Below are positions 4,737 through 61,648 of a stretch of 61,932 nucleotides of DNA, piece after piece. Every line of letters starts with the position of its first letter. The first letter of the stretch is position 1. This stretch comes from an uncultured Bacilli bacterium (GTDB taxonomy: Bacteria; Bacillota_I; Bacilli_A; RF39; UBA660), in NCBI GenBank assembly GCA_944358795.1, contig CALVRW010000015.1, positions 1 to 61,932 on the forward strand, given 5' to 3'. Below the pieces are notes generated by a model. It was not told the origin of the DNA. It saw only the letters and a program-made list of their open reading frames with translations, and did not search any database. The position numbers were made by a program, and so were the translations under genes.

Positions 4737-6188
4737 CTAAACTTCCAATTTTTTTACTTTTTCTTTTCCTTGTTCCATCACACGATTCATTGATTCTTGT
4801 CTTTGATATAACAGATTTAATTTCTTTTTCAAATCTGTTTCTAAGGTTTCAAATTGTTCCTGTATCTTTCTTACTTCAGGAAAATCATATGATCCATATT
4901 CTAATAAAAATTCATTTTTTAAGGATTGTAGTTGTTCTATCGAATCTTCATAAACATTTGAAGATACTTCTAATGCTTTTTGTTCACTAGATAATTGCTC
5001 TACAATCTTTTCTGCATTAAAATATGCGACTTGGTTTTCTTTATCCTTTCCTAAATTTCTCATTCCTCGTATTCCATAGTTTGTAAATACTGCTCCTAAG
5101 AAAATATCAAACATCGATACTTTCTTCTTAAAAAAGCGAGAGATTCCAAATCCAGTTATCAAAGTACTCGTAATGATTTTTCCGAATGTTTTAAAGATTC
5201 CTCTTTTTTTCTTTTTAGATAGTACTTGTTCATTCATTTTTTCCATTAACTGTTGTTGCTTTCTAATTTTAAGAACTAGTTCTTGTTTTAATAACTCATT
5301 TTTTGTAAGAATCGCTTCTTTTTTATGATGAATAGTTTCTTTTGTTTGATTTTGTTTCGTATAACATTCATTTTTTAACATTACACACGCATCAAATGTT
5401 TTTCTAATTTTTTCGTTCTTTTGGTAGGGAGTCATTTTTGATTGAAGTTGTTCTAATTTTTCAATTGTTTGATCAAAGTTAGTGGAAGTCATCGATTGTT
5501 TAATATGATTTAGTTCTTGTTCAAAAGAATGATTTAACATTCGTATTTTTTCTTCTTCTAAATCTATTCCACCTTTTTTCTTTTGTTCTAAAATCGGTTC
5601 TTGTATTTTTTGATTCACGATTTGTTCTTGTTGTTCTAATCTTTTTTTTGTTTGTTTTTGTGTTGTTTCAATTGCGGTAATTTTTTCCTTACTTTCTGTA
5701 ATTTTTTTCTGGTTATCAGTCTTTTCTTTTTTCTTATTTTTCTTTTCTATCTCATTTAACTCTTTTTTTACCTCTTCTAATGTTTTTTGTTGTTGATTTT
5801 GTTTCTCTTGTATTTTTACCAAGGTTTCTTTTTGAGCAATTGCTTGTTTTTTTGTTTCTATCTTTTTTGTGTTTTCTTTTTTGACTTCTATTTTTAAAAA
5901 GTTCGTTTCTTCCTGTAAAGCTTGTAACTTCTTATCAATTTGGAGTAATTGTTTTTCTTCTTTTTTCTTTGGTAACAAAATTGTTTCTACTACTCCTAAA
6001 AATAATCCAATTACTGTCAAACAAATTACTTTTGGTTTAGAATATGTTTTAATCTGTTGTTCTTTTTTTCTCGCTTCTTCTGTTCTTTTTTTACATATTT
6101 TTTCTTCTTCTTGTTTTTTCTTTTTTTGCTGTTTTAAATTTCTAAGCCAGAGAAAAAAGCGATTTTTTCTACTTCCTCGTTCCCCCAT
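4737..6188 (-). CDS. K/E/Q-rich coiled-coil membrane protein
   Basis: 483 aa with a basic N-terminus and a hydrophobic segment (VICLTVIGLFLGVV). Long charged heptad-like stretches follow, then a second hydrophobic patch (FKTFGKIITSTLITGFGI). Confidence 0.6.
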   Translation of the reverse strand: MGERGSRKNRFFLWLRNLKQQKKKKQEEEKICKKRTEEARKKEQQIKTYSKPKVICLTVIGLFLGVVETILLPKKKEEKQLLQIDKKLQALQEETNFLKIEVKKENTKKIETKKQAIAQKETLVKIQEKQNQQQKTLEEVKKELNEIEKKNKKKEKTDNQKKITESKEKITAIETTQKQTKKRLEQQEQIVNQKIQEPILEQKKKGGIDLEEEKIRMLNHSFEQELNHIKQSMTSTNFDQTIEKLEQLQSKMTPYQKNEKIRKTFDACVMLKNECYTKQNQTKETIHHKKEAILTKNELLKQELVLKIRKQQQLMEKMNEQVLSKKKKRGIFKTFGKIITSTLITGFGISRFFKKKVSMFDIFLGAVFTNYGIRGMRNLGKDKENQVAYFNAEKIVEQLSSEQKALEVSSNVYEDSIEQLQSLKNEFLLEYGSYDFPEVRKIQEQFETLETDLKKKLNLLYQRQESMNRVMEQGKEKVKKLEV

Positions 6189-6274: not shown

Positions 6275-7939
6275 TTAACTAATAATACTTACTAATGTAA
6301 TTTTTGCGTATCCATTTCCAGTATTACCTGTAATGTTTCCACTACCTCTTGGGTTTGGCATTGAAGCATTACCTGCAATCATAGAAGTGCTTGTAAACTT
6401 TTTACCAGAATAATGGACTGGTGAAGCGGTATGTTTTCCAGTACTATCAATTGCGTTACATCCATTATGACCAGAGATGAATGACGATCCTCCAGCTCCA
6501 GAACTAACACCACTATTGATGTAACCGCCTCCTCCGCCACCGTAGTAGCCTCCTCCGCCACCACTTCCGTGTCCGGCTTCAGAGTTTCCACCGATTCCAA
6601 ATATACCAGCACCACCATTATTAGTAGCACCTTTTCCTCCTGCTGTTTGAGTTCCACCAGTTGCTAAAGTATGAGATGCACTTCCAGAATTTAATATTCC
6701 AGCTCCTCCTGTAAGTGCTCCTCCATATCCTCCAACTGCAGCATTGGTATAATTTGATGCTCCAGCTCCACCAGCAGCTACCATGATTCGACTACGAAGT
6801 CCCATTGTATCATTCCAATAACCATTTACTAATCGAATATCAGTGGCTCCTCCTCCAGAACCTCCACCTTGGTAGGCATTTCCTCCAGAACCACCACCAT
6901 TAAAGGTATCCGTAGCTGGATTAGAAGCTGATCCATTGTATCCTTTTTCTCCTACATAAATATATACTTTTTCATTGGCATCCAAAGTCATAATTCCTGA
7001 AGTATAAGCACCTTTTCCTCCTGCTACTAATGTACCAGTTCCATTGGTATTTGGATAACTTGATCCACCTTGTGCTCCCCATAATTCAAATTTATATGAA
7101 CCTTTTACAGGCGTTGTAAATTCTTGTTCTGATGACTTATAATCAAAATTATTATTGGTATTGATTTTAATAACCGTACGCGTTCTTTGAGAAATTGTTT
7201 TTCCATCCTCTACTAAATTATAAATTAACTGATAGGTTCCTGATGCCGTTCCCACACTACCTATTATTTTTACACGAGAATCATTTTCAACTGTACTACC
7301 ATCTTTTTTTCTAACATAATAACCTGGTTCTGTATAGGTTTTATCTTGTAATACAATTTGACTATTTCCCTTTAAGAATAATTGTTCTGTTGTTTCTATA
7401 TCACTAATATTAAGATCCCCGACTGATGATTCTAAACTATTATATAAATAAACAACACGAACACCATAATCACCTTTTACTAAAGGGTGTGTCACAGGAA
7501 TATCAATGGTAATCATGGAATCTTTTTTTCCATGTTCCACATTTAAAAAGGTTTCATTTGTAATTTTTACTTTTCCATAACTACTTCCACTTACTAATTT
7601 GGTTGTATAATCTCCATAGTGAAAGGTATTACTTACTTTATCAAAGCTAAGTGTCTTAACAGAATCATCTTCAAAGGTAAAACTAAGACAGTTATCTCCT
7701 GTTTGACATTTTGCCGCAATTTTTATCTTTTGTTCTTCAAAGCTCTCTGCTACTTTTTTTGTCATCAAACCTTGTTTAATTAACAATTCCGTTTTTAATC
7801 CATCTTTTACATATAATTCTTTTAAATTTAATACAATTTGAAATAAAATTAAAACAATTACGAGTGTCAAACTAAATGACACTGTAAGTTCCACAATTGT
7901 AAATCCTCTTCTATTTTTTATAATCCCATTTTTATTCAT
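6275..7939 (-). CDS. type IV pilin-like protein with C-terminal glycine-rich domain
   Basis: N-terminus is KNRRG|FTIVELTVSFSLTLVIVLILF (prepilin cleavage/methylation motif). The C-terminal ~270 aa carry repeated GGxGG blocks (ELWGAQGGSS...GGKGAY...GGGSGGGATD...GGGGGYYGGGGGGY). Confidence 0.75.
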   Translation of the reverse strand: MNKNGIIKNRRGFTIVELTVSFSLTLVIVLILFQIVLNLKELYVKDGLKTELLIKQGLMTKKVAESFEEQKIKIAAKCQTGDNCLSFTFEDDSVKTLSFDKVSNTFHYGDYTTKLVSGSSYGKVKITNETFLNVEHGKKDSMITIDIPVTHPLVKGDYGVRVVYLYNSLESSVGDLNISDIETTEQLFLKGNSQIVLQDKTYTEPGYYVRKKDGSTVENDSRVKIIGSVGTASGTYQLIYNLVEDGKTISQRTRTVIKINTNNNFDYKSSEQEFTTPVKGSYKFELWGAQGGSSYPNTNGTGTLVAGGKGAYTSGIMTLDANEKVYIYVGEKGYNGSASNPATDTFNGGGSGGNAYQGGGSGGGATDIRLVNGYWNDTMGLRSRIMVAAGGAGASNYTNAAVGGYGGALTGGAGILNSGSASHTLATGGTQTAGGKGATNNGGAGIFGIGGNSEAGHGSGGGGGYYGGGGGGYINSGVSSGAGGSSFISGHNGCNAIDSTGKHTASPVHYSGKKFTSTSMIAGNASMPNPRGSGNITGNTGNGYAKITLVSIIS

Positions 7940-8664: not shown

Positions 8665-9159
8665 TTATTTAATTGTTCCAAATCGATTAAATGGAAATAA
8701 AGAGAAATTCGTTGTTCCTAAAATATCTTCTTTCTTTACCAAACCAATGGTTCTACTATCAGTAGAATTCATTCGATTATCCCCCATAACAAAATAATAA
8801 TCATCCGGTATTTTATCATATCCTAATTCTTCTAATTTAAAATTTCCTGTTTTTCCATGTTGAAATGTTTCTTTTACTTCTTTTTTATTAATATAAAGTT
8901 TTCCATTTTGATAAGAGACATAATCTCCAGGTAAACCCACAATCCGTTTTACTAATTTAGTACCATGATAATCTAATACCACAATTTGAAATCGTTTATA
9001 ACTATGATCCCATTTGTTTAACAGTAATATTTGTTTATCTTCTAACGTTGGTACCATCGAAGTTCCTTGTACTCGTACTGGTGTAATTAGAAAAATACGA
9101 ATGAGTACTACTACAGCTATGATAATGATATAAGGAATACATTCTTTTAATAATTTCAC
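8665..9159 (-). CDS. lepB: signal peptidase I
   Basis: GTSMVPTL (Ser box), KRIVGLPGD (Lys box) and GDNRMNSTDSR. Confidence 0.85.
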   Translation of the reverse strand: MKLLKECIPYIIIIAVVVLIRIFLITPVRVQGTSMVPTLEDKQILLLNKWDHSYKRFQIVVLDYHGTKLVKRIVGLPGDYVSYQNGKLYINKKEVKETFQHGKTGNFKLEELGYDKIPDDYYFVMGDNRMNSTDSRTIGLVKKEDILGTTNFSLFPFNRFGTIK

Positions 9160-15665: not shown

Positions 15666-16290
15666 ATTGATCCCTTTCTAATATCTCTTTTACTGGTCCA
15701 TACGTTTTACGATATCCTTCAATTAAACCATATTCTTTTAATGCTTCTAAATGTTTTTTCGTCGGATATCCTTTATGATTTTTAAATCCATACATTGGAT
15801 ATTTTTCATCTAATTCATACATCATCTGATCTCTTGTAACTTTTGCGATAACACTAGCTGCCGCAATGGTAATACTTTTCGCATCTCCTTTAATAATTGG
15901 TGTTACAGGAATATCTAATTCCATTGGCATCGCATCTGATAATACATGTTTCACATCTACTTTTTCTCTTACTTTCGTAATTGCTCTTATCATCGCTTCT
16001 TTCGATGCTTGATAAATATTCATCGTATCAATTTCTTCTGGAGTGCACATCCCGATTTCTACTGCTACTGCATGATCCATAATATATTGATAGAACTGAT
16101 TTCGTTTCTTTTCACTTATTTTTTTAGAATCAGTTAACCCCTCTAAGGCAAAGTCATGAGGAAGAACAACACAGGCAGTAACCACTGGACCAATCAAAGG
16201 TCCTCTTCCTACTTCATCAACACCAGCGACAAATGAAATTCCTTTTTCCCATAACTCTTTTTCATATTGATATAAATCTACTTCTTCCAT
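15646..16290 (-). CDS. rnhB: ribonuclease HII
   Basis: GVDEVGRGPLIGPVV, DSKK and KGDAKSITIAAASVIAKVTRD. Confidence 0.9.
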   Translation of the reverse strand: MEEVDLYQYEKELWEKGISFVAGVDEVGRGPLIGPVVTACVVLPHDFALEGLTDSKKISEKKRNQFYQYIMDHAVAVEIGMCTPEEIDTMNIYQASKEAMIRAITKVREKVDVKHVLSDAMPMELDIPVTPIIKGDAKSITIAAASVIAKVTRDQMMYELDEKYPMYGFKNHKGYPTKKHLEALKEYGLIEGYRKTYGPVKEILERDQYETVCD

Positions 16291-17633: not shown

Positions 17634-18570
17634 TTAACTAAGGAAATTCATAACCAGGTCAATTATAATTTCTTTTTCTTTTGGGTTTGACTCCGCAATC
17701 AGTAATGTTAAAGCCGTTAAAGTGTTATTATCAATAACTTGTTTACCCTCTTTATACAAAATACCCATAATAATTTAAGAAATAAATAAACAAAGTTGCT
17801 GCGATTCTTTTATTCCCATCAATGAAAACATGATTTTTAACAATCATATATATAAAATTAGAAGCTTTTTCTTCTATACTTTGATAAACATCTTTACCAC
17901 CATATGTTTGATAAATATTTCCTATAATTGCTTCTAAACCTCTATTTCTTTCAATAGCAAAAATATCACTTTCTTCATTAAATCTTAACTTATTAATTAT
18001 CTCTAAACAATCTCTGTATTTTATTCACTTTTGACTATTATTTCCTTTAGGTTTTAATAATGTTCTATGATCATAATCGTCTAATAAATCAAGTGTTTTT
18101 GAATAACTTCCTATTACTCTCAAAATTTCTTTGGCATCATTATTTTCTAATTTTTCATCGATTCTATTTGCAATATCTATTAGTTTAATCGTCTTTTCTA
18201 AATATTCTAATCTTTTTTGATTAACAGCATAACCTTTTATCATGTAATCTTTTAATATTTTATTTGCCCATTTTCTAAAAATAATACCATTTTGTGATTT
18301 AACACGGTAGCCAACTGATATAATTACATCTAAATTATAAAAAGGAACTTTTTGTTTAACACCATCAACGTGTAAATTTTGCACGGTGTTAGTTTCAATT
18401 AATTCTCGTTCCTTAAAAATATTAATGATATGTCTTCTTATATTAGATTCCTCTCTGCCAAACAATTCAGCCATTTGTTTGACATTTAACCACACAGTCT
18501 CATCTTTCATATTAACTTCAAGTTTTATTCCTTGATTTTCAAATAAAATTATTTCATTTTTTTGATTCAT
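17634..18570 (-). pseudogene. RhuM-Fic/DOC fusion gene disrupted by an in-frame TGA and a frameshift
   Basis: The RhuM part is 18025-18570. After TGA at 18025-18027 the same frame continues IKYRDCLEII...KNHVFIDGNKRIAATLFIYFL (Fic motif H-x-F-x-DGNKR) to TAA at 17752. The tail LYKEGKQVIDNNTLTALTLLIAESNP... sits in another frame. Confidence 0.7.
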
Positions 18571-19079: not shown

Positions 19080-19500
19080 CTATTTTCTTTCTAGCAATGT
19101 CCATCTTTTATATAGTTCATGATTGGTCCATAAGTTTTTCAGTAACCATCCTATTAACCCATATTTATTAATGGTTTCTAAATGTTTTTTGGTGGGATAA
19201 CCTTTATGATTTTTAAAACCAAATTCTGAGTGTTTTTTATCTACTTCATATAATATTCTATTCCTAGTGACTTTTGCGATAACGTTAGCGGCGGCAATTG
19301 ACATACTTTTAGTATCGCCTTTGATTATTGGCATGATTGGGATATCAATATCTATGGGCATAGCATCAGACAAAACATATTCTAATTTTACTTGCTTTTG
19401 AACTTCTCTGATAGCTTTAATCATCGCCTGTCTACTGGCTTCATATATATTTATTTGTTCAATTTCTTCTGGGCCAACTATTCCTACTCCATATATTGTT
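19080..19500 (-). pseudogene. decayed second copy of RNase HII (N-terminus missing; stop and frameshift in the C-terminus)
   Basis: Translation ...GPEEIEQINIYEASRQAMIKAIREVQ...KGDTKSMSIAAANVIAKVTRN...GFKNHKGYPTKKHLE parallels rnhB at 15646-16290. The catalytic DEVGRG start is absent. A shifted frame reads GY*KTYGP where rnhB has GYRKTYGP. Confidence 0.7.
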
Positions 19501-32303: not shown

Positions 32304-32330
32304 TAAAAAATACCATATCATTATGGTATT
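32304..32330 (-). terminator. terminator of the split LysM gene
   Basis: Minus strand reads AAUACCAUA-augA-UAUGGUAUU (9-bp stem) followed by UUUUU. The stop codon lies inside the hairpin. Confidence 0.6.
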
Positions 32331-32437
32331 CTCAATACTTGACCGATTCTTAAATTATCACTTGTTAATTGATTCAACCGTTTTATTTCATCTACTGTTG
32401 TACCAAATTTTCTTGCAATATTCCATAACGTATCACC
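32321..32437 (-). pseudogene. detached 3' segment of the PG-binding/LysM gene (last LysM repeat)
   Basis: Translates to (G)[37 protein letters not shown]. It is near-identical to LysM repeats 1-2 at 37030-37330 and in frame with 37007-37867 once 32438-37006 is removed. Confidence 0.8.
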
Positions 32438-32570
32438 TGATACATTTTTTATGTAGCATTTTGAATTTTCAGTTTCTTAATCGAATGCCTGATTGTTAAC
32501 ATATAAAAATAATTATTCTCTAAAAAAATATCCTATTAATTTTTACTAAAATTAATAGGATGAGAAATTT

Positions 32571-33667: not shown

Positions 33668-35215
33668 TTATATCGTATTTTTAAATGTTAATATAATATC
33701 TATTTGTTTATTTTGATAAATATAAATTTTTTCAACTAGATGAATGATTAACTCTCTAGTTGGATCATTCATTGATAAAAATTCATTCATATAGTTTTCT
33801 ATTCCATTTTTATCTATTTTATTAGGTTCAATTAATTCAGTTTTTAATTCTTCAATCGTTAATTTGTTATTTTTGATTTCTTTTTTTATAATTTCACTTA
33901 TTCTTACATATTGCTCTTCATCAATCACACTATTTAACATATCCATATAAATTTTATCTAAATTTGTAATCAATTGATTATTTTTATGTTCTAAACATTC
34001 AATTTGATGCTTCAATTTTAACATATTATCTTCAAACTCTGTATTATGAATTTTATTTTTTACTATATTTATATCTAAATTTTTTTTACAAACATCTCTA
34101 ATATTATCTAGAATTACTTTTTCTAATCGTTCATAATTATTGATATGTGCTGTACAAACTTGATATTTTGAATAGGTCCTATAATAATTACAAGTCGTAT
34201 AACTTCTACCAGTTTTATTTTGATATCGAATCGAAATACGATGTTTACAATCACCGCAATATAAAAGTCCATCTAATAAATAAAATCTTTTTTTCTCTGG
34301 CCTTTTTACATTTTTTGGTAATAATGTTTGTACAAGCTCAAATGTATCTTTATCAATAATTGCTTCATGAGTATTTTCTACAATCATATAATCATTAGGA
34401 TTATTCTTAACAAACTTTTTCAGTTTATAATTAATCTTTTTCGTCTTCCCTTGTACAACATCTCCAGTGTATATTCGATTTGTAAGAATCGCTTTCACTG
34501 TTGTATCAACCCATACACCATGTTCTTGTGATAAACATTTTTTATTCCAAACATAATGATAATAGGATGCTGGTGTTTTTATTTTTTTTTCAGTAAGGTA
34601 TTGAGCAATATAATGATAGGTATTCCCTTTAAGTGCTAAATCAAAAATTAATTTAACTACTACTGCTTGTTCTTCATTTATTACTAAATGATTTTTATTA
34701 ATTGGATTCTTCCTATATCCAAATGGACATCTTCCCGATACATATAACCCATCTTTCATTCTTGAGTGAAGGCTGCTTTTGATTTTTTTCGAAATATCTT
34801 TAGCATACATATCATTCATGATGGCTTTAAAAGGAGCAATATCATTACTTGCATTATCGATAAAAGTATCGATTCCATCGTCAATCGCAATATATCTAAT
34901 CTGATTCTTTGGAAAATATTTTTCGATTAACTCTCCTGTACCAATATAATCTCTTCCAAGTCTAGACATATCTTTGGTAATCACCATATTAATTTTCCCT
35001 AATTCAATATCTTTCATCATTCTTTTGAATGATGGTCTATCAAAATTCGTTCCAGAAAATCCATCATCAACATATTCATCTACTACTATATAATTATTTT
35101 CTTTCACATACTGTTTTAGTAAACTTCTTTGACTAACAATACTATCAGACTCTATATTCCCATCATCTCTTGATAATCTTATATAAAGTCCTACTTTATA
35201 ATTACTATTTTCCAC
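33668..35215 (-). CDS. large serine recombinase
   Basis: Resolvase catalytic domain VGLYIRLSRDDG...SIVSQR, a recombinase domain, a zinc ribbon (CGDCKHRISIR...C..YRTY...C) and a long C-terminal coiled coil. 515 aa. Confidence 0.9.
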   Translation of the reverse strand: MENSNYKVGLYIRLSRDDGNIESDSIVSQRSLLKQYVKENNYIVVDEYVDDGFSGTNFDRPSFKRMMKDIELGKINMVITKDMSRLGRDYIGTGELIEKYFPKNQIRYIAIDDGIDTFIDNASNDIAPFKAIMNDMYAKDISKKIKSSLHSRMKDGLYVSGRCPFGYRKNPINKNHLVINEEQAVVVKLIFDLALKGNTYHYIAQYLTEKKIKTPASYYHYVWNKKCLSQEHGVWVDTTVKAILTNRIYTGDVVQGKTKKINYKLKKFVKNNPNDYMIVENTHEAIIDKDTFELVQTLLPKNVKRPEKKRFYLLDGLLYCGDCKHRISIRYQNKTGRSYTTCNYYRTYSKYQVCTAHINNYERLEKVILDNIRDVCKKNLDINIVKNKIHNTEFEDNMLKLKHQIECLEHKNNQLITNLDKIYMDMLNSVIDEEQYVRISEIIKKEIKNNKLTIEELKTELIEPNKIDKNGIENYMNEFLSMNDPTRELIIHLVEKIYIYQNKQIDIILTFKNTI

Positions 35216-35567: not shown

Positions 35568-36845
35568 CTAATTTATTTTTTCATATAATTTTGAATATAA
35601 AACAAACGGTTCATGCCAATCTTTATAATATCTCATAATAGCATCTCTAGATGGTAGACCTAATTTAACTAAATCTTTAGCAGCTTTTGGTATAGAATTA
35701 CCATCTTTTATGTAAGCAAGAATAATATTATCAATTTCTTGTTTTGTAAATTTTGCTTTTTTCTTTTTCTTGATTACTATATTATATTTTTCACAAAATA
35801 AATCAAAAGTACCAAAATTTTTATAAATCGTACTTTCAGATATTGGAAAGATATCTAAAAAATCTTTTCTTGTATTAAATACCCTATCTCTCGTTTGAAA
35901 TAATTCTTCAATATATTTGTCAATATCAGAAGTAGTTATTAGTTCATTTTTTTTAGAAATTTGAGAACCAACAAGTTTTTGAAAATTCCCCATAGTTCCA
36001 AAATACTTATATATTACTCCTGCTGTTGGCAAGTTGTTTTCTAAACACAAATTTTTCTGTGTTATTTTTCCATGCTTTTCAACAAATTTCTTTCCAGCTT
36101 CCAATACTTTATCCTTTGTCCAATTATTTCTAATTTTCAAATTAAACATATCTTTCTTCATCTCATTTAATCCTGTATATTCTGGATAATGTCTAATAAT
36201 ACAAGGATATGAAGGCAATCCATTATATGATTTCAAATCTTTTTCTAAAATATCACCATTGATTTTGATATAATCTTCCAAAGCTTCTTTTATTGTTTCT
36301 CTGTTCCATGCAATTGGTTCTTTTAAATTAAATGATTGTTTTAAAGTTTGAAAATCTCCATAGTATTTATATACATATTTTATCGATGGAAGATTATTAT
36401 ACACTCTATTAAAATCAACTTTATTTATGGTTCCCTTTTTATTAATAAAGTTTGAAATAATTAAATCAAATTTATCTTTAGTCATTTCTTCAGATTCTAT
36501 TTTTGTGTTTTCAAAAGTATCAATTTCGTTCGGTTCATTAGAATCATCTTCATCTATGCTTCTACCTTCAAGAAATTTTTTTGCTTTCTCATCTAAAAGG
36601 AAATCAGTAAGTTCTTTATCATTTTTCTTTAAATTACATTCAGAACACAAAATTTGACAGTTAGATTTAATCGACTTGCCACCTTTAACATATGCCTCAA
36701 TATGATCAAAATGTCCTTCATTTATAGACTTCAATTCTTTTCCGCAAGCTTCACAACATATTCTGCCATTATTTTTTTCTAAATTTTCTCTAACTATTGA
36801 AAATTTTATAGAATCAGTAAAATCTCTCATAATTATACCTCGCAC
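35568..36845 (-). CDS. HNH endonuclease-domain protein with five ~55-aa helical repeats
   Basis: N-terminal CCEACGKEL...GHFDHIEAYVKGG...CQILCSECNLKKNDK. Repeated modules follow, each ending in a ...LPS/T..x.I.k.YG.F... pattern (homing-endonuclease-associated repeat type). Confidence 0.8.
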   Translation of the reverse strand: MRGIIMRDFTDSIKFSIVRENLEKNNGRICCEACGKELKSINEGHFDHIEAYVKGGKSIKSNCQILCSECNLKKNDKELTDFLLDEKAKKFLEGRSIDEDDSNEPNEIDTFENTKIESEEMTKDKFDLIISNFINKKGTINKVDFNRVYNNLPSIKYVYKYYGDFQTLKQSFNLKEPIAWNRETIKEALEDYIKINGDILEKDLKSYNGLPSYPCIIRHYPEYTGLNEMKKDMFNLKIRNNWTKDKVLEAGKKFVEKHGKITQKNLCLENNLPTAGVIYKYFGTMGNFQKLVGSQISKKNELITTSDIDKYIEELFQTRDRVFNTRKDFLDIFPISESTIYKNFGTFDLFCEKYNIVIKKKKKAKFTKQEIDNIILAYIKDGNSIPKAAKDLVKLGLPSRDAIMRYYKDWHEPFVLYSKLYEKIN

Positions 36846-36967: not shown

Positions 36968-37867
36968 TTAATATAACTCATTATTCCCCATAAAAATTGT
37001 ATCACCTGCCACGACAGTATAAGTTTTCACACTTGGTACTTTTAGTATTTGACCAATTCTTAAGTTATCACTTGTTAGTTGATTCAATCGTTTTATTTCA
37101 TCTACCGTTGTACCAAATCTTTTTGCGATGTTCCATAACGTATCTCCTGCCACAACAGTATAAGTGGATACATCTTGTGGTGGTATTACCTCTCCTGTTG
37201 TTGGTATTTTTAATACTTGACCTACTAAAATCGTATCATTTGTTAAATTATTCAATCGTTTTATTTCATCTACTGTAGTACCGAATTTTTTCGCAATACT
37301 CCACAAACTATCACCTGGAACAACCGTATAAGAAATCGTATTTCCCTCTTCTGTTTCTCCATCACAAATTGCAAGTGGTGCATAAAGGGTATCAAGGGCA
37401 CTCCATGTATCTCTTCCAACAATACCATCGGCTGTTAGATGGTTAATTGTTTGAAATGATTTCACTGCTGTTTGGACACTGGTATCAAAATTTCCATTGA
37501 TTGGTCCATTATAATAAAGTAAATTCGTTAAAATTCGTTGTAACTCCATTACATATGGTCCACTGCTCCCAAGACGAAGTGTTGGTTTTGTTTGTATCTT
37601 ACTAGCTGGCAACATATTATTTGTAAGACGAAATAAAGCATCCCAAGTATCTCTTCCAACAACTCCGGTTGGATTTAATCCTTGATCTTGTTGAAACCTT
37701 TTTACTGAGTCAGTAGTACGATTCCCAAAACTCCCCGTGATACTAGCATCATAATAACCTAATAATTTCAATTTTTCTTGTAATATCATCACTTCATTTC
37801 CCGTACTTCCTTCTTCTAATGGTGGATAACGAAATGTTGATTGTTTTTCTTCTAAATCATTATTCAT
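36968..37867 (-). CDS. 5' portion of a PG-binding (x2) + LysM (x2, third truncated) protein; reading frame runs into the element
   Basis: Two PG_binding_1-like repeats (GSTGNEVMILQEKLKLLGYY..., GSSGPYVMELQRILTNLLYY...) and two LysM repeats ([27 protein letters not shown]...). The ORF ends AGDT-IFMGNNELY*, with the last 9 codons read from element DNA. Confidence 0.8.
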   Translation of the reverse strand: MNNDLEEKQSTFRYPPLEEGSTGNEVMILQEKLKLLGYYDASITGSFGNRTTDSVKRFQQDQGLNPTGVVGRDTWDALFRLTNNMLPASKIQTKPTLRLGSSGPYVMELQRILTNLLYYNGPINGNFDTSVQTAVKSFQTINHLTADGIVGRDTWSALDTLYAPLAICDGETEEGNTISYTVVPGDSLWSIAKKFGTTVDEIKRLNNLTNDTILVGQVLKIPTTGEVIPPQDVSTYTVVAGDTLWNIAKRFGTTVDEIKRLNQLTSDNLRIGQILKVPSVKTYTVVAGDTIFMGNNELY

Positions 37868-44826: not shown

Positions 44827-46368
44827 TTAATTAGAAACTACCACAGCACGAGATGAGTTATTACTACTTTCGAACCCTCCATTTCGACTTGTACGAAACA
44901 CACCTGCACTAGAATTGCTATTATAGTATCCACCTCGTCCAATCCAAGGATCAGTTGAATGAGGCATATAGCCATAATCGTCATACCAATGCTTTGGATA
45001 AGATGATGTATATACTTCTTTCATCGCATCTCCTAATTTACTGATACTATGATTAGATGCATCTGTATTATAATCATATTTATCATAGTATTTACTATCT
45101 GGAGCACTTGTAAATCCACTACTTGCCGTATTAAAATTTCCATCTTGTTTTACACTACTAGCCATTACGTATTCATATGCTCCTCCACTCATATCGAAGA
45201 TTCCTGTAATGTTTCCTGTTGTACTTTGATTGTACGTTCCATTTCCTTTACTTCCGTAAGCATTTTTGCAAGTGCTTGTAGTACTTTCCGTTACGCTATC
45301 TGCTCCACATCCTGTTATAAAATTACTATTATTATTTAAAATGATTTCACTGTTTTTCCCGTATTTACTATGTGATAGGTATGCAACCGCTCCCCATTCT
45401 ATATTCTTCATCATATGAGAATCATAACTACTTAATCCATAATTACTGTCCATACTTTTTATAATATTAAATAATGAACTTACATTTTGATTTCTTAAAG
45501 AGGATACATTTGGTTTAATCGTTGGACTTGACGCTGTTCCTGTCATTTCAAATTTTCCTACCCACATTCCTGATAATTCTGTACTTCCCAACGTAAAGGC
45601 TGGATGTGTTAACCATTCTCCATTTTTTGTTCCTGTACTTTTTGATGTACTATTACTTTCAAATTCGATTTTAATTTCTTGTGGTTGTGATTCTTTACCT
45701 TCTACATTCCATAATTGATATTTATATCTTGGTATCCATACATAATAAGCTAGTATATCTGATTCTGTGATTGCTGTTCCAGGAGTAGCGCTTTTATACT
45801 TGTCTCTTGAATCGTTTGTAACAGCTACGGCATTCGCCCATTTCTTTTGGTCGTAATCATACCATTTAGAATTAACATCTGCTTTGACTGTCTTTCCGTT
45901 ACTATCAAATGTTACAGGAATTATTCCATCTTGAACCACTGGAGCTCCGTCACTACTACTTCCCCCTCCTGTAACACATTCTGCTTCTGTTTTCTTACTT
46001 TCATCGATTGTTACTTCTTCTGTATCGTAGTCTTTTACTACACAAAAACCATTAATCCATGCACGAAGTTGGGTATCCATTTCTTCATTAATATCCAATG
46101 TAAATTTTGTTGGTTTTGTTCCCTTCATCGGTAGATTACTACCTTCATCATAATGATATGGTGGATTGACATTTTCAATTCCAGATGTTGCGGCAGCAAG
46201 TTCTCCTGCTTTAATCACACTATATCCTGCATCTCTGGCTGCACTCTTTTTCGCATCATTTATTACATTCATGATTAATGGAGTTGCGATTAGGGCGATA
46301 ACTGCTAGTATGACGATAACTGCAAGTAACTCTATTAACGTAAATCCTTGTTTTGCTTTTTCCTTCAT
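44827..46368 (-). CDS. type IV pilin-like protein with C-terminal C-type-lectin/FGE-sulfatase-like domain (paralog A)
   Basis: I prefer the start MKEKAKQG|FTLIELLAVIVILAVIALIATPLI (RBS GAAGGAG). The C-terminus ...GIFDMSGGAYEYV...GRGGYYNSNSSAGVF...RAVVV is SUMF1-like. About 85-90% identical by eye to 58404-59942. Confidence 0.8.
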   Translation of the reverse strand: MKEKAKQGFTLIELLAVIVILAVIALIATPLIMNVINDAKKSAARDAGYSVIKAGELAAATSGIENVNPPYHYDEGSNLPMKGTKPTKFTLDINEEMDTQLRAWINGFCVVKDYDTEEVTIDESKKTEAECVTGGGSSSDGAPVVQDGIIPVTFDSNGKTVKADVNSKWYDYDQKKWANAVAVTNDSRDKYKSATPGTAITESDILAYYVWIPRYKYQLWNVEGKESQPQEIKIEFESNSTSKSTGTKNGEWLTHPAFTLGSTELSGMWVGKFEMTGTASSPTIKPNVSSLRNQNVSSLFNIIKSMDSNYGLSSYDSHMMKNIEWGAVAYLSHSKYGKNSEIILNNNSNFITGCGADSVTESTTSTCKNAYGSKGNGTYNQSTTGNITGIFDMSGGAYEYVMASSVKQDGNFNTASSGFTSAPDSKYYDKYDYNTDASNHSISKLGDAMKEVYTSSYPKHWYDDYGYMPHSTDPWIGRGGYYNSNSSAGVFRTSRNGGFESSNNSSRAVVVSN

Positions 46369-46564: not shown

Positions 46565-47572
46565 TTAAAGTACTGACTTAGAAATACTGATTACTGGACG
46601 TACACCATAGTAATTATTATTTTTCACTTCTGAATAATATAAACGTCCTGCATAACGTACATACCACGCATTATTTGCTACTGAAAGAATTGGAGAACTT
46701 GTCCAATATCCCATTGTACTACTATCATTTACATCACATCCCCAAGAAGTACATCCTTGTGTATAATTAAATAACCATTTATATTTTGCTTTTCCCTGTG
46801 CAATACTTGGGTCGTTTTGTTTATTCGTTTCAAAGTAAAACCAATTATCTTTTCCAGCTACATTCGCATCAAATCCTGTATTTCCTGTAATTTTCGCAAT
46901 TTCATTTGCGCCAATTAATCTAGGATTCAAACTACTATTCCATGTTGCTGTATCACTATTAAGTACTGTTTTTACTTCTTTCATTTGTGAATTACTACCA
47001 CTAGAATTCCATGCGACTTTAGCAGTTGTATTATGATCAAGAATAACATTGACAGTACTACTATTTTCACTATCGTTAAATGCATGCCATTTCATACACC
47101 CAGTTTTTGTTCCTGTTGTACTCTTTGCTTCGCTAGAACTACATTTTTGATTTGTTTCTGGATTAAAATAAATAACTGTTCCATTATCATATTTAGGATA
47201 TTTTATACTTGCAGTACAACTTTCACCCTGTTTTAATAATTCATAATTTGCTTTCTTTTTATTATCCGTTACAATTTTAACATATCGATCAGGTTCTAAA
47301 GTTGTACCTGTTTCTAAATCTTGAACTGGTTCATCTAACAAGTCGGCATCAATTAATTCTTGAATTAATACACAACTTGTTTGATTAGGTTTTAAATTTT
47401 CTTCTGAGTATAAATATGCGGCATGAAAAATGATTTCTTTTTGTGTTTCTGATATTTGTTTTTGATTATTCTTTACTTGATTCAAAATGAGTGGTACTGC
47501 TAAAAGACAAATAATACTAAAAATTGTTAGTACAGCAAGTAACTCGATTAATGTAAATCCTTTTTTTTTCAT
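46565..47572 (-). CDS. type IV pilin-like protein with DUF1566/Lcl-like C-terminal domain
   Basis: MKKKG|FTLIELLAVLTIFSII. The C-terminus YWTSSP...NAWYVRYAGRLYYSEVKNNNYYGVRPVISI resembles the DUF1566 ending. Confidence 0.7.
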   Translation of the reverse strand: MKKKGFTLIELLAVLTIFSIICLLAVPLILNQVKNNQKQISETQKEIIFHAAYLYSEENLKPNQTSCVLIQELIDADLLDEPVQDLETGTTLEPDRYVKIVTDNKKKANYELLKQGESCTASIKYPKYDNGTVIYFNPETNQKCSSSEAKSTTGTKTGCMKWHAFNDSENSSTVNVILDHNTTAKVAWNSSGSNSQMKEVKTVLNSDTATWNSSLNPRLIGANEIAKITGNTGFDANVAGKDNWFYFETNKQNDPSIAQGKAKYKWLFNYTQGCTSWGCDVNDSSTMGYWTSSPILSVANNAWYVRYAGRLYYSEVKNNNYYGVRPVISISKSVL

Positions 47573-47583
47573 ACGCTCACCCC

Positions 47584-47964
47584 TTACCCATTACATGGCG
47601 TTTCTGAATATTTTGCATGAAATTGACCATTCTCATCCATTGATACTGTAACACAACCATTCATTTTACTTCCATCTTTAGGATTAATAATATCCTTATC
47701 TTCAACAACATCTCGTTCTTTTAATAATGTTAATGAAAGCTTAGCTGAAGTAGTATCATCCGGTAATATTTCACTGATATTTTCGGCAACAAACCCTTCC
47801 GTTGCTCTTTCTATTTCAAAGATCTGATTTTGATATGCTTTTTCTTTATTTTGACTAATAATTCTTCCAACAGTAGGAACTGCTACTAACGCAATGACTG
47901 CTAAGATTACAATCACTGCTAATAATTCTATTAATGTAAAAGCTTTTTCATTCATTTTAACCAT
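47584..47964 (-). CDS. ComGC-like minor/major pseudopilin (126 aa)
   Basis: MVKMNEKA|FTLIELLAVIVILAVIALVAVPTV, followed by a small globular domain ending in Cys...Cys. Confidence 0.7.
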   Translation of the reverse strand: MVKMNEKAFTLIELLAVIVILAVIALVAVPTVGRIISQNKEKAYQNQIFEIERATEGFVAENISEILPDDTTSAKLSLTLLKERDVVEDKDIINPKDGSKMNGCVTVSMDENGQFHAKYSETPCNG

Positions 47965-58200: not shown

Positions 58201-58294
58201 ATTATCTCCTTTGTGTTCTAAATACACGGACTATTATAAAATCTTTTACCCGGTTTGTCAAGTAGAAATGACAGGTTACCACGAAGTTATAAAA

Positions 58295-58323
58295 CCACAA
58301 CTTGCAAGCAAGTTGTGGTTTTT
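58295..58323. terminator. hairpin terminator downstream of paralog B
   Basis: CCACAACTTGC-aa-GCAAGTTGTGG, flanked by an A-run and a T-run. Confidence 0.55.
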
Positions 58324-58390: not shown

Positions 58391-58406
58391 TAGTCGCTAG
58401 CGACTA
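58391..58406. repeat. perfect 16-nt palindrome TAGTCGCTAGCGACTA containing the stop codon of paralog B
   Basis: Read directly from the sequence. It forms a 6-bp stem plus a CTAG loop, and TAG occurs in all three frames on both strands. Confidence 0.9.
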
Positions 58407-59942
58407 GTTGCTGACCACGACACCACGAGCCGAGACGACACTGTCCCCGCTACCGCTGTAGTGGAACGAGGAGAACACACCCGCGTTCGAATTAACGATG
58501 CAGTGACCACCGCGGTACACCCAAGGGTAGGACGAGAGAGGCATATATCCGTAATCATCATACCAATGTTCATATGATGAAACGTAAACTTCTTTCATCG
58601 CATCTCCTAATTTACTAATACTATGATTACTATTACTTGTATTATAATCATATTGGTCATAATATTTACTATCTGGGGCACTCGTAAATCCACTAGTTGC
58701 CGTGTTAAAACTTCCATCTTGTTTTTTACTATTTGCCATTACATATTCATAAGCTCCTCCACTCATATCAAAGATTCCAGTAATGTTCCCTGTCGTACTT
58801 TGATTATACGTTCCATTTCCTTTACTTCCGTAGGCATTTTTACAAGTGCTTGTACTACTTTCACTAGCACTATCTGCTCCACACCCGGTTGTAAAATTAC
58901 TATTGTTGTTTAGAATAACTTCTCCATTTTTTCCATATTTACTATGTGATAGGTACGCAACTGCTCCCCATTCACTATTTTTCATCATATGGCTATCATA
59001 ACTGTTTAATCCATAATTACTTCCCATACTTTGAATAATATTGAAGAATGAACTGATATTTTGATTTCTTAAGGAAGTTAAATTTGGTTTGATGGTTGGA
59101 CTTGATGATGTTCCTGTCATCTCAAATTTTCCTACCCACATTCCTGATAATTCTGTACTACCAAACGTAAATGCCGGATGCGTTAACCATTCTCCATTTT
59201 TGGTTCCTCTACTTTTTGGAGTACTCTTACTTTCAAATTCGATTTTAATTTCTTGTGGCTCGGATGCATCCCCATCTACATTCCATAATTGATATTTATA
59301 CCTTGGTATCCATACATAGTAAGCTAAGATATCTGATTCTGTGATTGCTGTACCAGCACTTGCATTTTTATACTTGTCTCTTGAATCATTTGTTACTGCT
59401 ACAGCATTGGCCCATTTCTTTTGATCGTAATCATACCAATCACCATTAACATCTGCTTTTACTGTTTTTCCATTACTATCAAATGTTACTGGGATCATTC
59501 CATCTTGGATTACTGGGGATCCATCATTACTACTTCCTCCTCCAGTTACACAATCTTTTTCTGTTTTCTTGCTTTCATCGATTGTCACTTCTTCTGTATC
59601 ATAATCTTTTACAACACAATATCCATTAATCCAAGCACGAAGTTGTGTTTTCATTTCTTTATCTATATCAAGTGTAAATTTGGTTGGTTTCGTTCCTTTC
59701 ATTGGTAGGTTACTACCTTCATCATAATGAAATGGTGGATTAACACTTTCAATTCCTTCGGTTGCTGCTTTTAATTCTCCAGCTTTTATCACACTATATC
59801 CTGCATCTCTTGCTGCACTTTTCTTCGCATCATTAATCACATTCATAATAAGTGGTGTTGCGATTAGTGCGATAACTGCTAATATAACGATAACCGCAAG
59901 TAACTCTATTAACGTAAATCCTTGATATGTTTTTTCCTTCAT
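58404..59942 (-). CDS. type IV pilin-like protein with C-type-lectin/FGE-sulfatase-like domain (paralog B) carrying a DGR-type variable-region-like tail
   Basis: I prefer the start MKEKTYQG|FTLIELLAV. It is colinear with paralog A except for the last 44 codons. Confidence 0.8.
   Translation of the reverse strand: MKEKTYQGFTLIELLAVIVILAVIALIATPLIMNVINDAKKSAARDAGYSVIKAGELKAATEGIESVNPPFHYDEGSNLPMKGTKPTKFTLDIDKEMKTQLRAWINGYCVVKDYDTEEVTIDESKKTEKDCVTGGGSSNDGSPVIQDGMIPVTFDSNGKTVKADVNGDWYDYDQKKWANAVAVTNDSRDKYKNASAGTAITESDILAYYVWIPRYKYQLWNVDGDASEPQEIKIEFESKSTPKSRGTKNGEWLTHPAFTFGSTELSGMWVGKFEMTGTSSSPTIKPNLTSLRNQNISSFFNIIQSMGSNYGLNSYDSHMMKNSEWGAVAYLSHSKYGKNGEVILNNNSNFTTGCGADSASESSTSTCKNAYGSKGNGTYNQSTTGNITGIFDMSGGAYEYVMANSKKQDGSFNTATSGFTSAPDSKYYDQYDYNTSNSNHSISKLGDAMKEVYVSSYEHWYDDYGYMPLSSYPWVYRGGHCIVNSNAGVFSSFHYSGSGDSVVSARGVVVSN
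58407..58538 (-). other. candidate DGR variable region (VR)
   Basis: 132 nt at ~60% GC (hand count 79/132). Only 17 A on the coding strand, none at codon position 3. 23/44 codons are NNC. It contains GCGGGTGTGTTC, which I recall as typical of lectin-type DGR repeats. Confidence 0.6.
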
Positions 59943-60445: not shown

Positions 60446-61648
60446 ATGAAGTATGTTTTAGTACTAGACATTGCTAAAGGTAAAAGTATGTTTATGTTAT
60501 CTAGTGATGATGGTGAAATTTTATTAGAACCTACAGAATACGCACATAATAAATCTAATTTTGAATTTATTAATTCTTGTATTCATAAACTAAATATCAA
60601 AGATAATTTAACTGTTGTTATGGAAGCAACTAGTATCTATCACAAAGCACCAGAAAGATTTTTTAAAGAAAATAATTATCATGTTATTGTCTTTAATCCT
60701 CTTATTGGTAAAGAAATTACGAACACTATCAGAAAAACAAAAACTGATAAACAAGACTGCATTAAATTAACTAATTTATTTTGGAAAGGTAGTATTCCAA
60801 ATAGAATTTATAAAGAAGATGAGATTTATACCAATCTTAATGAATTATCTAGACATTATTATCATTTAGACGAAGGTTTAACTAGACATAAGAATCGTTA
60901 TAAAGAATTATTACATCTTTGTTTTCCAGAATTCGAATTGTGTTTTAAAGATGGAAAAATATATGATTTAACTGCTTTAAACTTTATCAAAGAGTTTCCA
61001 CACGCTTATATTATTAAAGAAAAAAGAGTTGATGCTCTTGCTTACAATATGGCTAATACAAATGGTAGACATATCAACTATTATAAGAGAAAAGCTAATA
61101 CGATTAAGGAATATGCCCAAAATTCTTATCCAGGAGTAAGTAAGAATTCTAAAGATGTTGATAATCTTAAACAATTAACCGATATCATTATTGATATTTC
61201 TAAACAAAAAGATAATGTCAAAAACCAAATGATTGAACTTGCCAAACAAACTAAACATTTCGAATGCATTGTTTCGATATTTGGTATTGGAGAATTATCC
61301 ACCTCTTTAATTATCGCTGAATTAAAAGATATTACTAGATTCAATAATGTTAAACAAATTAATGCTAGTTGTGGATTAGATCCTACTATAATTCAATCAG
61401 GTAAAAGTATAAATTATCATGGTCCAATTTCCAAAAGAGGAAATAGATACGCTAGAAAAATATTATTTAATTGTAGTCGAAATATTGTAACTATATCAGC
61501 TAAATGTGATAAAGAAAATCCAATTTATGTTTATTATCAAAAGAAAAAACAGGAAGGTAAACATTACTATGCTTGTTTAACTGCCTGTTCCACTAAATTA
61601 ATTAGAATTATTTATGCGTTGTGCATAAATAACTCAACCCAAAATTAG
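60446..61648 (+). CDS. IS110-family transposase/recombinase
   Basis: LDIAKGKS...MEATSIYH...NP...KTDKQD (DEDD RuvC-like domain). The C-terminal Tnp domain reads IFGIGELSTSLIIAELKDITRF...GLDPTIIQSGKS...ISKRGNRYARK. Confidence 0.9.
   Translation: MKYVLVLDIAKGKSMFMLSSDDGEILLEPTEYAHNKSNFEFINSCIHKLNIKDNLTVVMEATSIYHKAPERFFKENNYHVIVFNPLIGKEITNTIRKTKTDKQDCIKLTNLFWKGSIPNRIYKEDEIYTNLNELSRHYYHLDEGLTRHKNRYKELLHLCFPEFELCFKDGKIYDLTALNFIKEFPHAYIIKEKRVDALAYNMANTNGRHINYYKRKANTIKEYAQNSYPGVSKNSKDVDNLKQLTDIIIDISKQKDNVKNQMIELAKQTKHFECIVSIFGIGELSTSLIIAELKDITRFNNVKQINASCGLDPTIIQSGKSINYHGPISKRGNRYARKILFNCSRNIVTISAKCDKENPIYVYYQKKKQEGKHYYACLTACSTKLIRIIYALCINNSTQN

Follow-up and report, generated by a model that had tools for sequence, protein, structure and literature searches.

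The adenine-poor tail of a prepilin-type gene from an uncultured Bacilli bacterium as the probable variable region of a remote diversity-generating retroelement target

The stretch of DNA analyzed here (61,932 nucleotides, hereafter the window) belongs to an uncultured Bacilli bacterium of the RF39 lineage (GenBank assembly GCA_944358795.1, contig CALVRW010000015.1, positions 1 to 61,932), and toward its end it carries on the minus strand a gene for a prepilin-type protein, designated here gene B, the last codons of which depart sharply in composition from the rest of the gene. A first-pass annotation, made from the sequence alone, had read this tail as the variable region (VR) of a target of a diversity-generating retroelement (DGR), that is, a segment rewritten from a template repeat (TR) by a reverse transcriptase (RT). 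Four mutually independent kinds of evidence now support the reading: complete cassettes situated in cis at homologous genes, the pattern of differences between alleles, the positional concordance of these differences with the TRs of relatives, and the predicted fold of the protein. The features of gene B are listed below, with coordinates of the window and the strand in brackets.

58404-59942 (-), gene B, encoding a 512-aa prepilin-type protein with a predicted C-terminal DGR-type lectin-fold domain, as judged from the open reading frame (ORF), Pfam, homologues and an AlphaFold2 (AF2) model
59859-59927 (-), class III (prepilin) signal and N-methylation motif QG↓FTLIELLAVIVILAVIALIATPL (Pfam PF07963), at the start of the long N-terminal helix
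58407-59525 (-), globular C-terminal domain of about 370 residues (approximately residues 140-512) with the predicted fold of DGR variable proteins, similar to FGE-sulfatase and C-type lectin (CLec), assigned with Foldseek
58407-58545 (-), the probable VR, 59.8% GC, adenine-poor and NNC-rich, recognized by composition, by allele differences and by the columns of relatives' TRs
58407-58433 (-), invariant 3' end of the VR, TCGGCTCGTGGTGTCGTGGTCAGCAAC, encoding SARGVVVSN, at the position expected of a homing element resembling the initiation of mutagenic homing (IMH) site
58391-58406 (-), perfect palindrome TAGTCGCTAGCGACTA containing the TAG stop codon, recognized in the sequence and folding as DNA into a 6-bp stem with a 4-nt loop

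In its last 44 codons (132 nt, 58407-58538), gene B contains 79 G+C, i.e., 59.8% GC, versus 34.3% in the other 468 codons; the composition switches at 58544, within about 10 nt, and the first variable codon of the VR occupies positions 58536-58538. Adenine occurs in the tail 17 times, with a distribution of 8/9/0 over codon positions 1/2/3, and 23 of the 44 codons are of the NNC type, while in the gene overall 41% of the codons end in A and 9% in C. Given this codon usage, the probability of finding no codon ending in A among 44 is 7e-11, that of at least 23 NNC codons in the tail is 3e-13, and that of 17 adenines or fewer is 7e-12. All of the tail counts given by the first-pass annotation (79/132 GC, 17 adenines with none at the third position, 23/44 NNC codons) were reproduced, as were its figures for the second copy of the gene in the window, paralog A (see below). 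The probable VR thus occupies the 3' end of the target ORF and, as is usual for DGR targets, is depleted of adenine and rich in codons derivable from AAC or AAT. It is also the highest-GC 132-nt stretch of the window, the total GC content of which is 29.7%. The only other stretch reaching 55% GC or more (6462-6617) was considered as a second VR and rejected, being a run of glycine codons; it is contained in the gene (6275-7939, minus strand) of a 554-aa protein that combines a prepilin-like N-terminus, RRGFTIVEL, with two domains, one bacterial surface Ig-like and one glycine-rich of the ALK/LTK type.

The tail scaffold is shared by genes on contigs of other assemblies, designated L001, L002, L003 and L087/88, the proteins of which are 99%, 95%, 85% and 68% identical to that of gene B, respectively. 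The last 27 coding nucleotides are the same in all of these contigs or differ by one or two base changes, in proteins that are 68-95% identical overall, and the palindrome TAGTCGCTAGCGACTA is identical in L001, L002, L003 and L087/88. Hairpins of different sequence stand at the same place after the stop codon in more distant homologous loci (L004, L005, L007, L022, L023, L036 and L045); in total, a hairpin overlaps the stop codon or directly follows it in seven of the eight relatives with a DGR in cis and a resolved TR, which are described below, the stem sequences varying between lineages. The stop codon of gene B does lie inside a perfect palindrome (58391-58406), as the first-pass annotation had claimed, and its proposal that this hairpin is placed as in DGRs is supported by these relatives. 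At the level of sequence, gene B has therefore both the invariant GC-rich VR 3' end and the hairpin following it that are expected of a DGR target.

Translation of gene B starts at an ATG at 59942, which is preceded by a GGAG ribosome-binding site. At the N-terminus of the product, a class III signal peptide, QG↓FTLIELLAVIVIL (QG↓FTLIELL...), carries G(-1), F(+1) and E(+5) and leads into a hydrophobic helix, and the prepilin-type N-terminus proposed earlier is borne out by the Pfam N_methyl profile (29.7 bits against a cut-off of 21.2). This N-methylation motif is the only Pfam match in the protein; FGE-sulfatase is not detected by sequence in gene B itself and is precomputed by Pfam for one of its homologues, P0043. 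The family is large (more than 7,850 database matches at E<1e-5), and most of the homologues possess the same prepilin motif, a few being annotated at the source as prepilin-type or type II secretion proteins. The AF2 model of the protein, built from a 64-sequence alignment, has a mean predicted local distance difference test (pLDDT) score of 89.7 and consists of a long helix (residues 11-64), a small beta-sheet head (strands within 71-112), a linker of low pLDDT (134-139), from which the approximate boundary of the C-terminal domain was taken, and a large globular domain. In a Foldseek search against the PDB, the variable protein TaqVP (5vf4) was the top and the sole strong match of the model (E=3e-10, probability 1.00), followed by the formylglycine-generating enzyme (FGE; 2q17) and EgtB (4x8b). 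According to the model, the C-terminal domain of gene B has the fold of TaqVP, a DGR target of solved structure, which agrees with the C-type-lectin/FGE-sulfatase-like fold suggested by the first-pass annotation. As a putative adhesin, the protein would be exposed on a type IV pilus or pseudopilus, and the role of a pilus tip adhesin is plausible. Genes of a prepilin peptidase or of the assembly ATPase and platform proteins were not found by Pfam among the annotated ORFs of the window.

The template side of the system was recognized in relatives of gene B. A scan of GTDB species genomes yielded 80 homologous loci, mostly from metagenome-assembled genomes (MAGs) of uncultured gut Bacilli and often several per MAG, including Candidatus Fimihabitans intestinipullorum, Clostridium sp. 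CAG:762 and Acholeplasma sp. CAG:878. When these loci were compared with themselves, the 3' tail of the homologue was found to be repeated 0.2-0.7 kb 3' of the stop codon in eight of them, and nearly all mismatches between the two copies fell at adenines of the downstream copy, i.e., of the TR, as listed here for each locus.

L004, mismatches at TR adenines 16/17
L005, mismatches at TR adenines 16/16
L007, mismatches at TR adenines 10/10
L022, mismatches at TR adenines 16/17
L023, mismatches at TR adenines 20/21
L036, mismatches at TR adenines 16/16
L045, mismatches at TR adenines 19/21
L047, mismatches at TR adenines 6/6

The cassettes of the relatives are arranged in the order target, TR, MutS-like gene (MutS_I, Msl), bAvd and RVT_1 reverse transcriptase, the latter with the motifs IGNYTSQ and YMDD. 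A tblastn search of 85 loci and the window revealed the Msl-Avd-RT trio in the eight TR loci and in L051 only. In nine of nine cassettes these genes are situated 3' of the target stop codon, and in the eight with a resolved TR it lies between the target and the trio. In L051 (11000-13700) the MutS-like, Avd and RT genes begin 0.8 kb 3' of a VR-like tail of 65% GC, and no TR was found there by a gapless scan tolerant of adenines; it may carry an indel relative to the VR. The cassette is of the Msl type, corresponding to architecture D of Wu et al. (2018, PMC5758913), and the family of gene B is, as far as its sequences tell, a family of DGR targets. In L036 the target gene and the TR are present in two identical copies 3.8 kb apart (4882-5336 and 8670-9124), which reflects either tandem duplication of this unit or an artefact of assembly.

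Differences between alleles of the tail follow the same logic. In the 132-nt VR, gene B of the window and its counterpart in L002 differ at 23 positions, distributed 12/10/1 over codon positions 1/2/3, versus 46 differences (4/4/38) in the other 1404 nt of the gene (Fisher test, P=2e-10 for codon position and P=2e-9 for density). Relative to L003, third positions are changed in 5 of the 44 codons of the VR and in 133 of the 468 codons of the rest, so that silent sites are better conserved in the VR (P=0.013). The alleles of the window, L002, L003 and L087 were also aligned with the TRs of five relatives, a comparison made with TRs of other genomes and not with one of the same genome: 19 of the 23 variable codon columns, and none of the 23 invariant ones, coincided with TR codons bearing adenine at position 1 or 2 (P=4e-9). 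This comparison, of the kind that the first-pass annotation had proposed as a check, shows a concentration of differences at columns of the template-adenine type. This pattern is what is expected of tails repeatedly rewritten from a shared AAC-rich template, and it would not result from ordinary divergence, foreign import or a chimera. Separately, gene B of the window and that of L001 differ in only three clustered residues, N404S, K406A and T416S (residues 404-416, at about 58695-58735); at these positions L001 has the residues of other paralogs, as if a short tract had been exchanged between paralogs by gene conversion.

On the target side, gene B shows all of the features of DGR targets, namely the position of the VR, the depletion of adenine, the invariant 3' end with the hairpin, the predicted CLec fold and the adenine-specific variation, while those of the template side, a TR and an RT accompanied by Avd, are present in homologous loci. 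In mechanism, the tail of gene B is in all probability a standard DGR variable region. Considering these facts together, we hold it to be highly probable that the segment 58407-58545 is the VR of a DGR target gene, the retroelement of which would lie elsewhere and act on it in trans. The genome presumably retains a cassette acting in trans both on gene B and on the sister copies with the same 3' end. According to the proposed scheme, the protein would combine a type IV prepilin N-terminus and a small pilin head with a TaqVP-like domain of about 370 residues, the last 44 codons encoding the diversified surface. A TR located elsewhere in the genome, presumably within a cassette arranged as in the relatives (target, TR, Msl, Avd, RT), would be transcribed and copied by the DGR reverse transcriptase with misincorporation opposite template adenines; the resulting cDNA would replace the VR, its homing being guided by the invariant GC-rich 3' end and by the hairpin overlapping the stop codon. 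In this manner AAC and AAT codons of the template could be turned into codons for any of about 15 amino acids, and the scaffold codons would be devoid of adenine, from which an adenine-poor, NNC-rich and GC-rich tail in a genome of 30% GC would follow. From five alleles the template is predicted to read ATGCCT AAC TCA TCC AAC CCT TGG GTG AAC CGC GGT GGT AAC WAC AAC AAT AAT NNG AAC GCA GGT GTG TTC AAC TCG AAC AAC AAC AAC GGT AAC AAG AAC ARA AAC AAC TCG GCA CGT GGT GTC GTG GTC AGC AAC.

Several observations weigh against this interpretation. Between the window and the contig L001, which is 99.8% identical to it, the VR shows no difference, so that no short-term diversification is visible, and the 400 nt upstream of the L002 gene are unlike those of L001, because of which L002 is perhaps not a strict ortholog. 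By folding energy the hairpin of the window is unexceptional (z = -0.85). A cognate TR or RT was found neither in the window nor in L001 (the same strain, with 10 kb on each side), L003 and L084-L088. Degenerate patterns CCTTGGGTGNNCCGCGGTGGT..., which fit either a TR or a VR, gave 0 matches in viral, GTDB-genome and JGI-metagenome contigs, and blastn of the VR against GenBank phages returned no match. A protein search with a TR-like peptide, in which all variable codons were set to Asn or Lys so as to detect a TR annotated as an ORF, produced three word-sharing candidates, none of them significant. The window's own VR is likewise unmatched in the contig collections, which means that the lineage is absent from them, and the empty scans mainly reflect this absence.

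The first-pass annotation had stated that no RT, Avd or TR is present in these 62 kb, and this was confirmed by three approaches. Pfam detected no RT, Avd or MutS-like gene among all 56 ORFs of 120 aa or more, three of which were identified solely via matching genes in L001; tblastn with the cassette proteins of relatives detected no cassette gene in the window; and a gapless scan, in which a position was counted as a match if the candidate was identical or had adenine there, recovered no TR for gene B from the window or any fetched locus, the VRs themselves being the sole matches. The contigs of sister paralogs (L003 and L084-L086 from the same samples, and L087/88) are also without a TR or cassette. 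Since the cognate TR and RT were not found in the accessible contigs, we infer, rather than observe, that gene B is a currently active remote target. A family of 121-nt repeats at 32324, 37034 and 37202 was examined as a TR/VR set and rejected, as these are LysM domain repeats: two copies (37034-37154 and 37202-37322) belong to the gene of a peptidoglycan-binding protein (36968-37867), and the third (32324-32444), 86% identical to them and located outside long ORFs, may be a gene fragment.

The other copies of the gene illustrate different states of the tail. The window contains one of them.

44827-46368 (-), paralog A, 513 aa, 85% identical to the product of gene B, with the corresponding tail at 44830-44961

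The tail of paralog A aligns with that of gene B without gaps, yet it is of ordinary composition (40.9% GC against 34% in the rest of the gene, 36 adenines, of which 11 are at the third position, four NNC codons) and has no hairpin. Its Asn-rich tail was considered as the template and rejected: 64 of the 132 positions differ from the VR of gene B, and as 31 of these are third codon positions, paralog A cannot be the TR. It is thus neither a current DGR target nor the template. Directly upstream of paralog A, beside the enolase gene, lie two more genes with a prepilin motif, 46565-47572 (minus strand, 335 aa, a weak DUF6273 match) and 47584-47964 (minus strand, 126 aa). Paralogs in related contigs are also situated among glycolytic genes (gap, pgk, tpi and gpmI in L003 and L087).

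The same organism occurs in the assembly ERZ24773502 and in the metagenome ERZ28614666, which holds the same strain and contributed two more paralogs, L084 and L086. In L084, located between proS and rnfC, the VR scaffold is largely intact (tail of 55% GC), and the hairpin and the 3'-end element are lost, the last four codons and the palindrome (L084, 11400-11560) being mutated toward A/T from GTGGTCAGCAAC TAG TCGCTAGCGACTA to TTAGTTAGTGAG TAG TCGCTATTGATTG; in two samples (L084/85) the tail does not differ. This paralog looks like a target in the process of leaving DGR control. The tail of L086 has drifted toward AT (49% GC, nine third-position adenines, no hairpin) and resembles that of paralog A. 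Against the AT-rich, hairpin-less tails of paralog A and L086 and the decay seen in L084/85, the state of gene B looks actively maintained. In a broader sample of 82 tails of the family, roughly two states can be distinguished, GC-rich and adenine-poor, often with a hairpin, versus ordinary composition, and most of the GC-rich tails have no cassette within the fetched flanks. The MAG MGG24433 (CATNCE01; L046, L059, L062, L063 and L082) encodes seven paralogs on five contigs, which share one VR scaffold ending in SARLVLLG and vary at columns of the AAY type, with no cassette within 10 kb and without a stop-overlapping hairpin like that of the cis-DGR relatives. Both the GC-rich tails without a cassette and the shared scaffold of MGG24433 make action on scattered copies appear common in the clade. 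On this basis we tentatively propose, as a possibility worth considering rather than a favored conclusion, that the family represents a multi-paralog repertoire of hypervariable type IV pilus or pseudopilus adhesins, in which one Msl-Avd-RT cassette may rewrite several scattered copies in trans, the copies being recruited or retired as the 3' homing element and hairpin are gained or decay.

The surroundings of gene B bear on the question of where the cassette could be. Two features flank the gene.

58291-58322 (-), intrinsic-terminator-like hairpin aaaccacaacttgcttgcaagttgtggtttt downstream of gene B, read by eye from the sequence
60446-61648 (+), gene of an IS110-family transposase (Pfam DEDD_Tnp_IS110 and Transposase_20), divergent from gene B and located on its 5' side

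On the 3' side, the terminator-like hairpin is followed by a gene of an NrtR-type regulator, a 155-aa ORF and the rpsL-rpsG-fusA-tuf cluster. On the 5' side, about 500 nt separate the IS110 transposase gene from the start of gene B. The window, which is an entire contig, ends about 120 nt past the transposase gene. The contig L001, taken from an ENA metagenome, continues beyond IS110 (L001, 7600-9500) into a 164-aa ORF, rpoC and rpoB, so the end of the window contig is an assembly break at the insertion sequence (IS), and no cassette is present within 10 kb on the IS110 side. In all, the window and a further 12 kb past it are free of a TR, Avd and RT.

Explanations other than a retroelement acting in trans at present have also to be weighed. 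The tail could be an orphan, written by an ancestral DGR, the cassette of which has since been lost, leaving the allele frozen under ordinary mutation. Such a fossil would accord with the lack of a cassette in about 120 kb of contigs from this organism or its sample (window, L001, L084 and L086), with the identical VRs of the window and L001, and with the decayed tails in the same organism (paralog A and L086) together with the degraded 3' end and hairpin of L084, from which it follows that loss of targeting does occur in the lineage. We nevertheless regard it as unlikely, given that gene B, 41% of whose codons end in A, has kept zero third-position adenines in its tail, and that the 3' end and the palindrome match those of copies in proteins only 68% identical; silent sites conserved in this way point to a tail that is still being overwritten from a template, and the contigs in which a cassette was sought are only a small part of the genome.

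A cassette once adjacent to gene B and then separated from it by the insertion of IS110 or an IS-mediated rearrangement, as the first-pass annotation had considered, appears very improbable. The transposase gene is indeed only 500 nt from the start of gene B, with an assembly break at this very place, but IS110 stands on the 5' side, while the MSL-Avd-RT genes were 3' of the target stop in nine of nine cassettes, and both flanks consist of housekeeping operons, with the terminator, NrtR, rpsL, rpsG, fusA and tuf on the 3' side and the 164-aa ORF, rpoC and rpoB beyond IS110. Moreover, sister copies with the same scaffold are flanked by gap and pgk (L003) or follow a NAGPA-domain gene downstream of pgk-tpi-gpmI (L087), and the proS-rnfC copy (L084) has kept most of the scaffold with a decayed 3' end, all with no IS or cassette nearby. 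Hardly credible, finally, is a GC-rich C-terminal segment acquired from a homologue of higher GC through ordinary recombination or horizontal transfer, or an assembly chimera, with no retrohoming involved. The abrupt boundary of composition at about 58544 would be natural for such an event; however, the same junction and tail are present in independent assemblies from four other samples (L001, L002, L003 and L087/88), the tails differ at the first and second codon positions in columns occupied by AAC or AAT in the TRs of relatives while the silent sites are fixed, and no GC-rich donor was matched in phage, viral, genome and metagenome searches.

Action of a DGR at a distance, as we prefer to read the tail of gene B, has precedents. 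Remote targets are documented for the TvpA system of Treponema denticola, which has seven additional scattered targets (Wu et al., 2018, PMC5758913). As in that system, the VR of gene B is C-terminal on a protein predicted to be a surface protein of the CLec/FGE fold, and paralogous targets with one VR scaffold are scattered among housekeeping genes, far from the RT. Unlike the Treponema DGR, which is of the HRDC type, the relatives of gene B have Msl and Avd as the accessory set, and gene B is known here from the target side alone. The N-terminus of gene B, in contrast to that of TvpA, is a type IV prepilin signal. In TvpA it is a lipoprotein signal. TaqVP of Thermus aquaticus (PDB 5vf4), the best structural match to the C-terminal domain, likewise has its VR at the extreme C-terminus, but the sequence identity is 14-15% and the TM-score 0.36-0.47, and, as far as the match shows, TaqVP has no pilin N-terminal module. 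The DGR of Bordetella phage BPP-1, the prototype of these systems, diversifies Mtd by means of an adenine-poor VR at the 3' end of the gene, with a GC-rich 3' element that is invariant and, immediately downstream, a hairpin/cruciform. Gene B shares with mtd the adenine-poor 3' VR, the invariant GC-rich 3' end and the hairpin at the stop codon; it differs in being a cellular gene on the chromosome, around which at least 10 kb on each side are free of a cassette, whereas in BPP-1 a phage tail fibre is diversified by a cis cassette.

Cassettes with Msl have been described as architecture D (Wu et al., 2018, PMC5758913) and in the Bacteroides elements Bfr, Bth and Bun (PMC11601372), and DGR-diversified type V pilus adhesins are known in Bacteroides (PMC11601372). 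The relatives of gene B resemble these elements in the order target, TR, MutS-like gene, Avd and RT, in the gut setting, in the C-terminal VR and in the putative association of the adhesin with pili. They differ from them, as the Bacteroides elements concern type V pili of a Gram-negative host, while the gene B family has a type IV prepilin N-terminus, occurs in uncultured Bacilli/Mycoplasmatota-like MAGs and forms many paralogs per genome. It is the fusion of a type IV prepilin N-terminus to a TaqVP-like domain, in many paralogs per genome of uncultured gut Bacilli, that is the less familiar part of the system. A G-type pilin domain is mentioned in passing among DGR targets (PMC11661182); apart from this mention, our literature search retrieved no paper linking DGRs with prepilins or with bacteria of the RF39 type. 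Large DGR surveys state that such remote targets are missed in fragmented assemblies (PMC8144416), and gene B offers a clear case of a target that would be recognizable from its own sequence, far from the retroelement. Through it, a family of DGR targets that has been little described comes into view, one characterized by a type IV prepilin N-terminus and found in uncultured gut Bacilli. If these proteins are indeed adhesins displayed on pili, paralogous pilus lectins would be subjected to targeted hypermutation in adaptation to host or microbial surfaces, in parallel with the type V pili of Bacteroides (PMC11601372). The active-looking, half-decayed and fully decayed paralogs of one organism provide a natural series for the study of how targets enter and leave DGR control.

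Elsewhere in the window, genes of a large serine recombinase (33668-35215), an HNH endonuclease (35568-36845) and a RhuM-family protein (18025-18570) are probably remnants of integrated mobile elements. A 300-nt direct repeat of 70% identity (15705-16004 and 19136-19435) was also noted, one copy of which lies in the region of the RNase HII gene.

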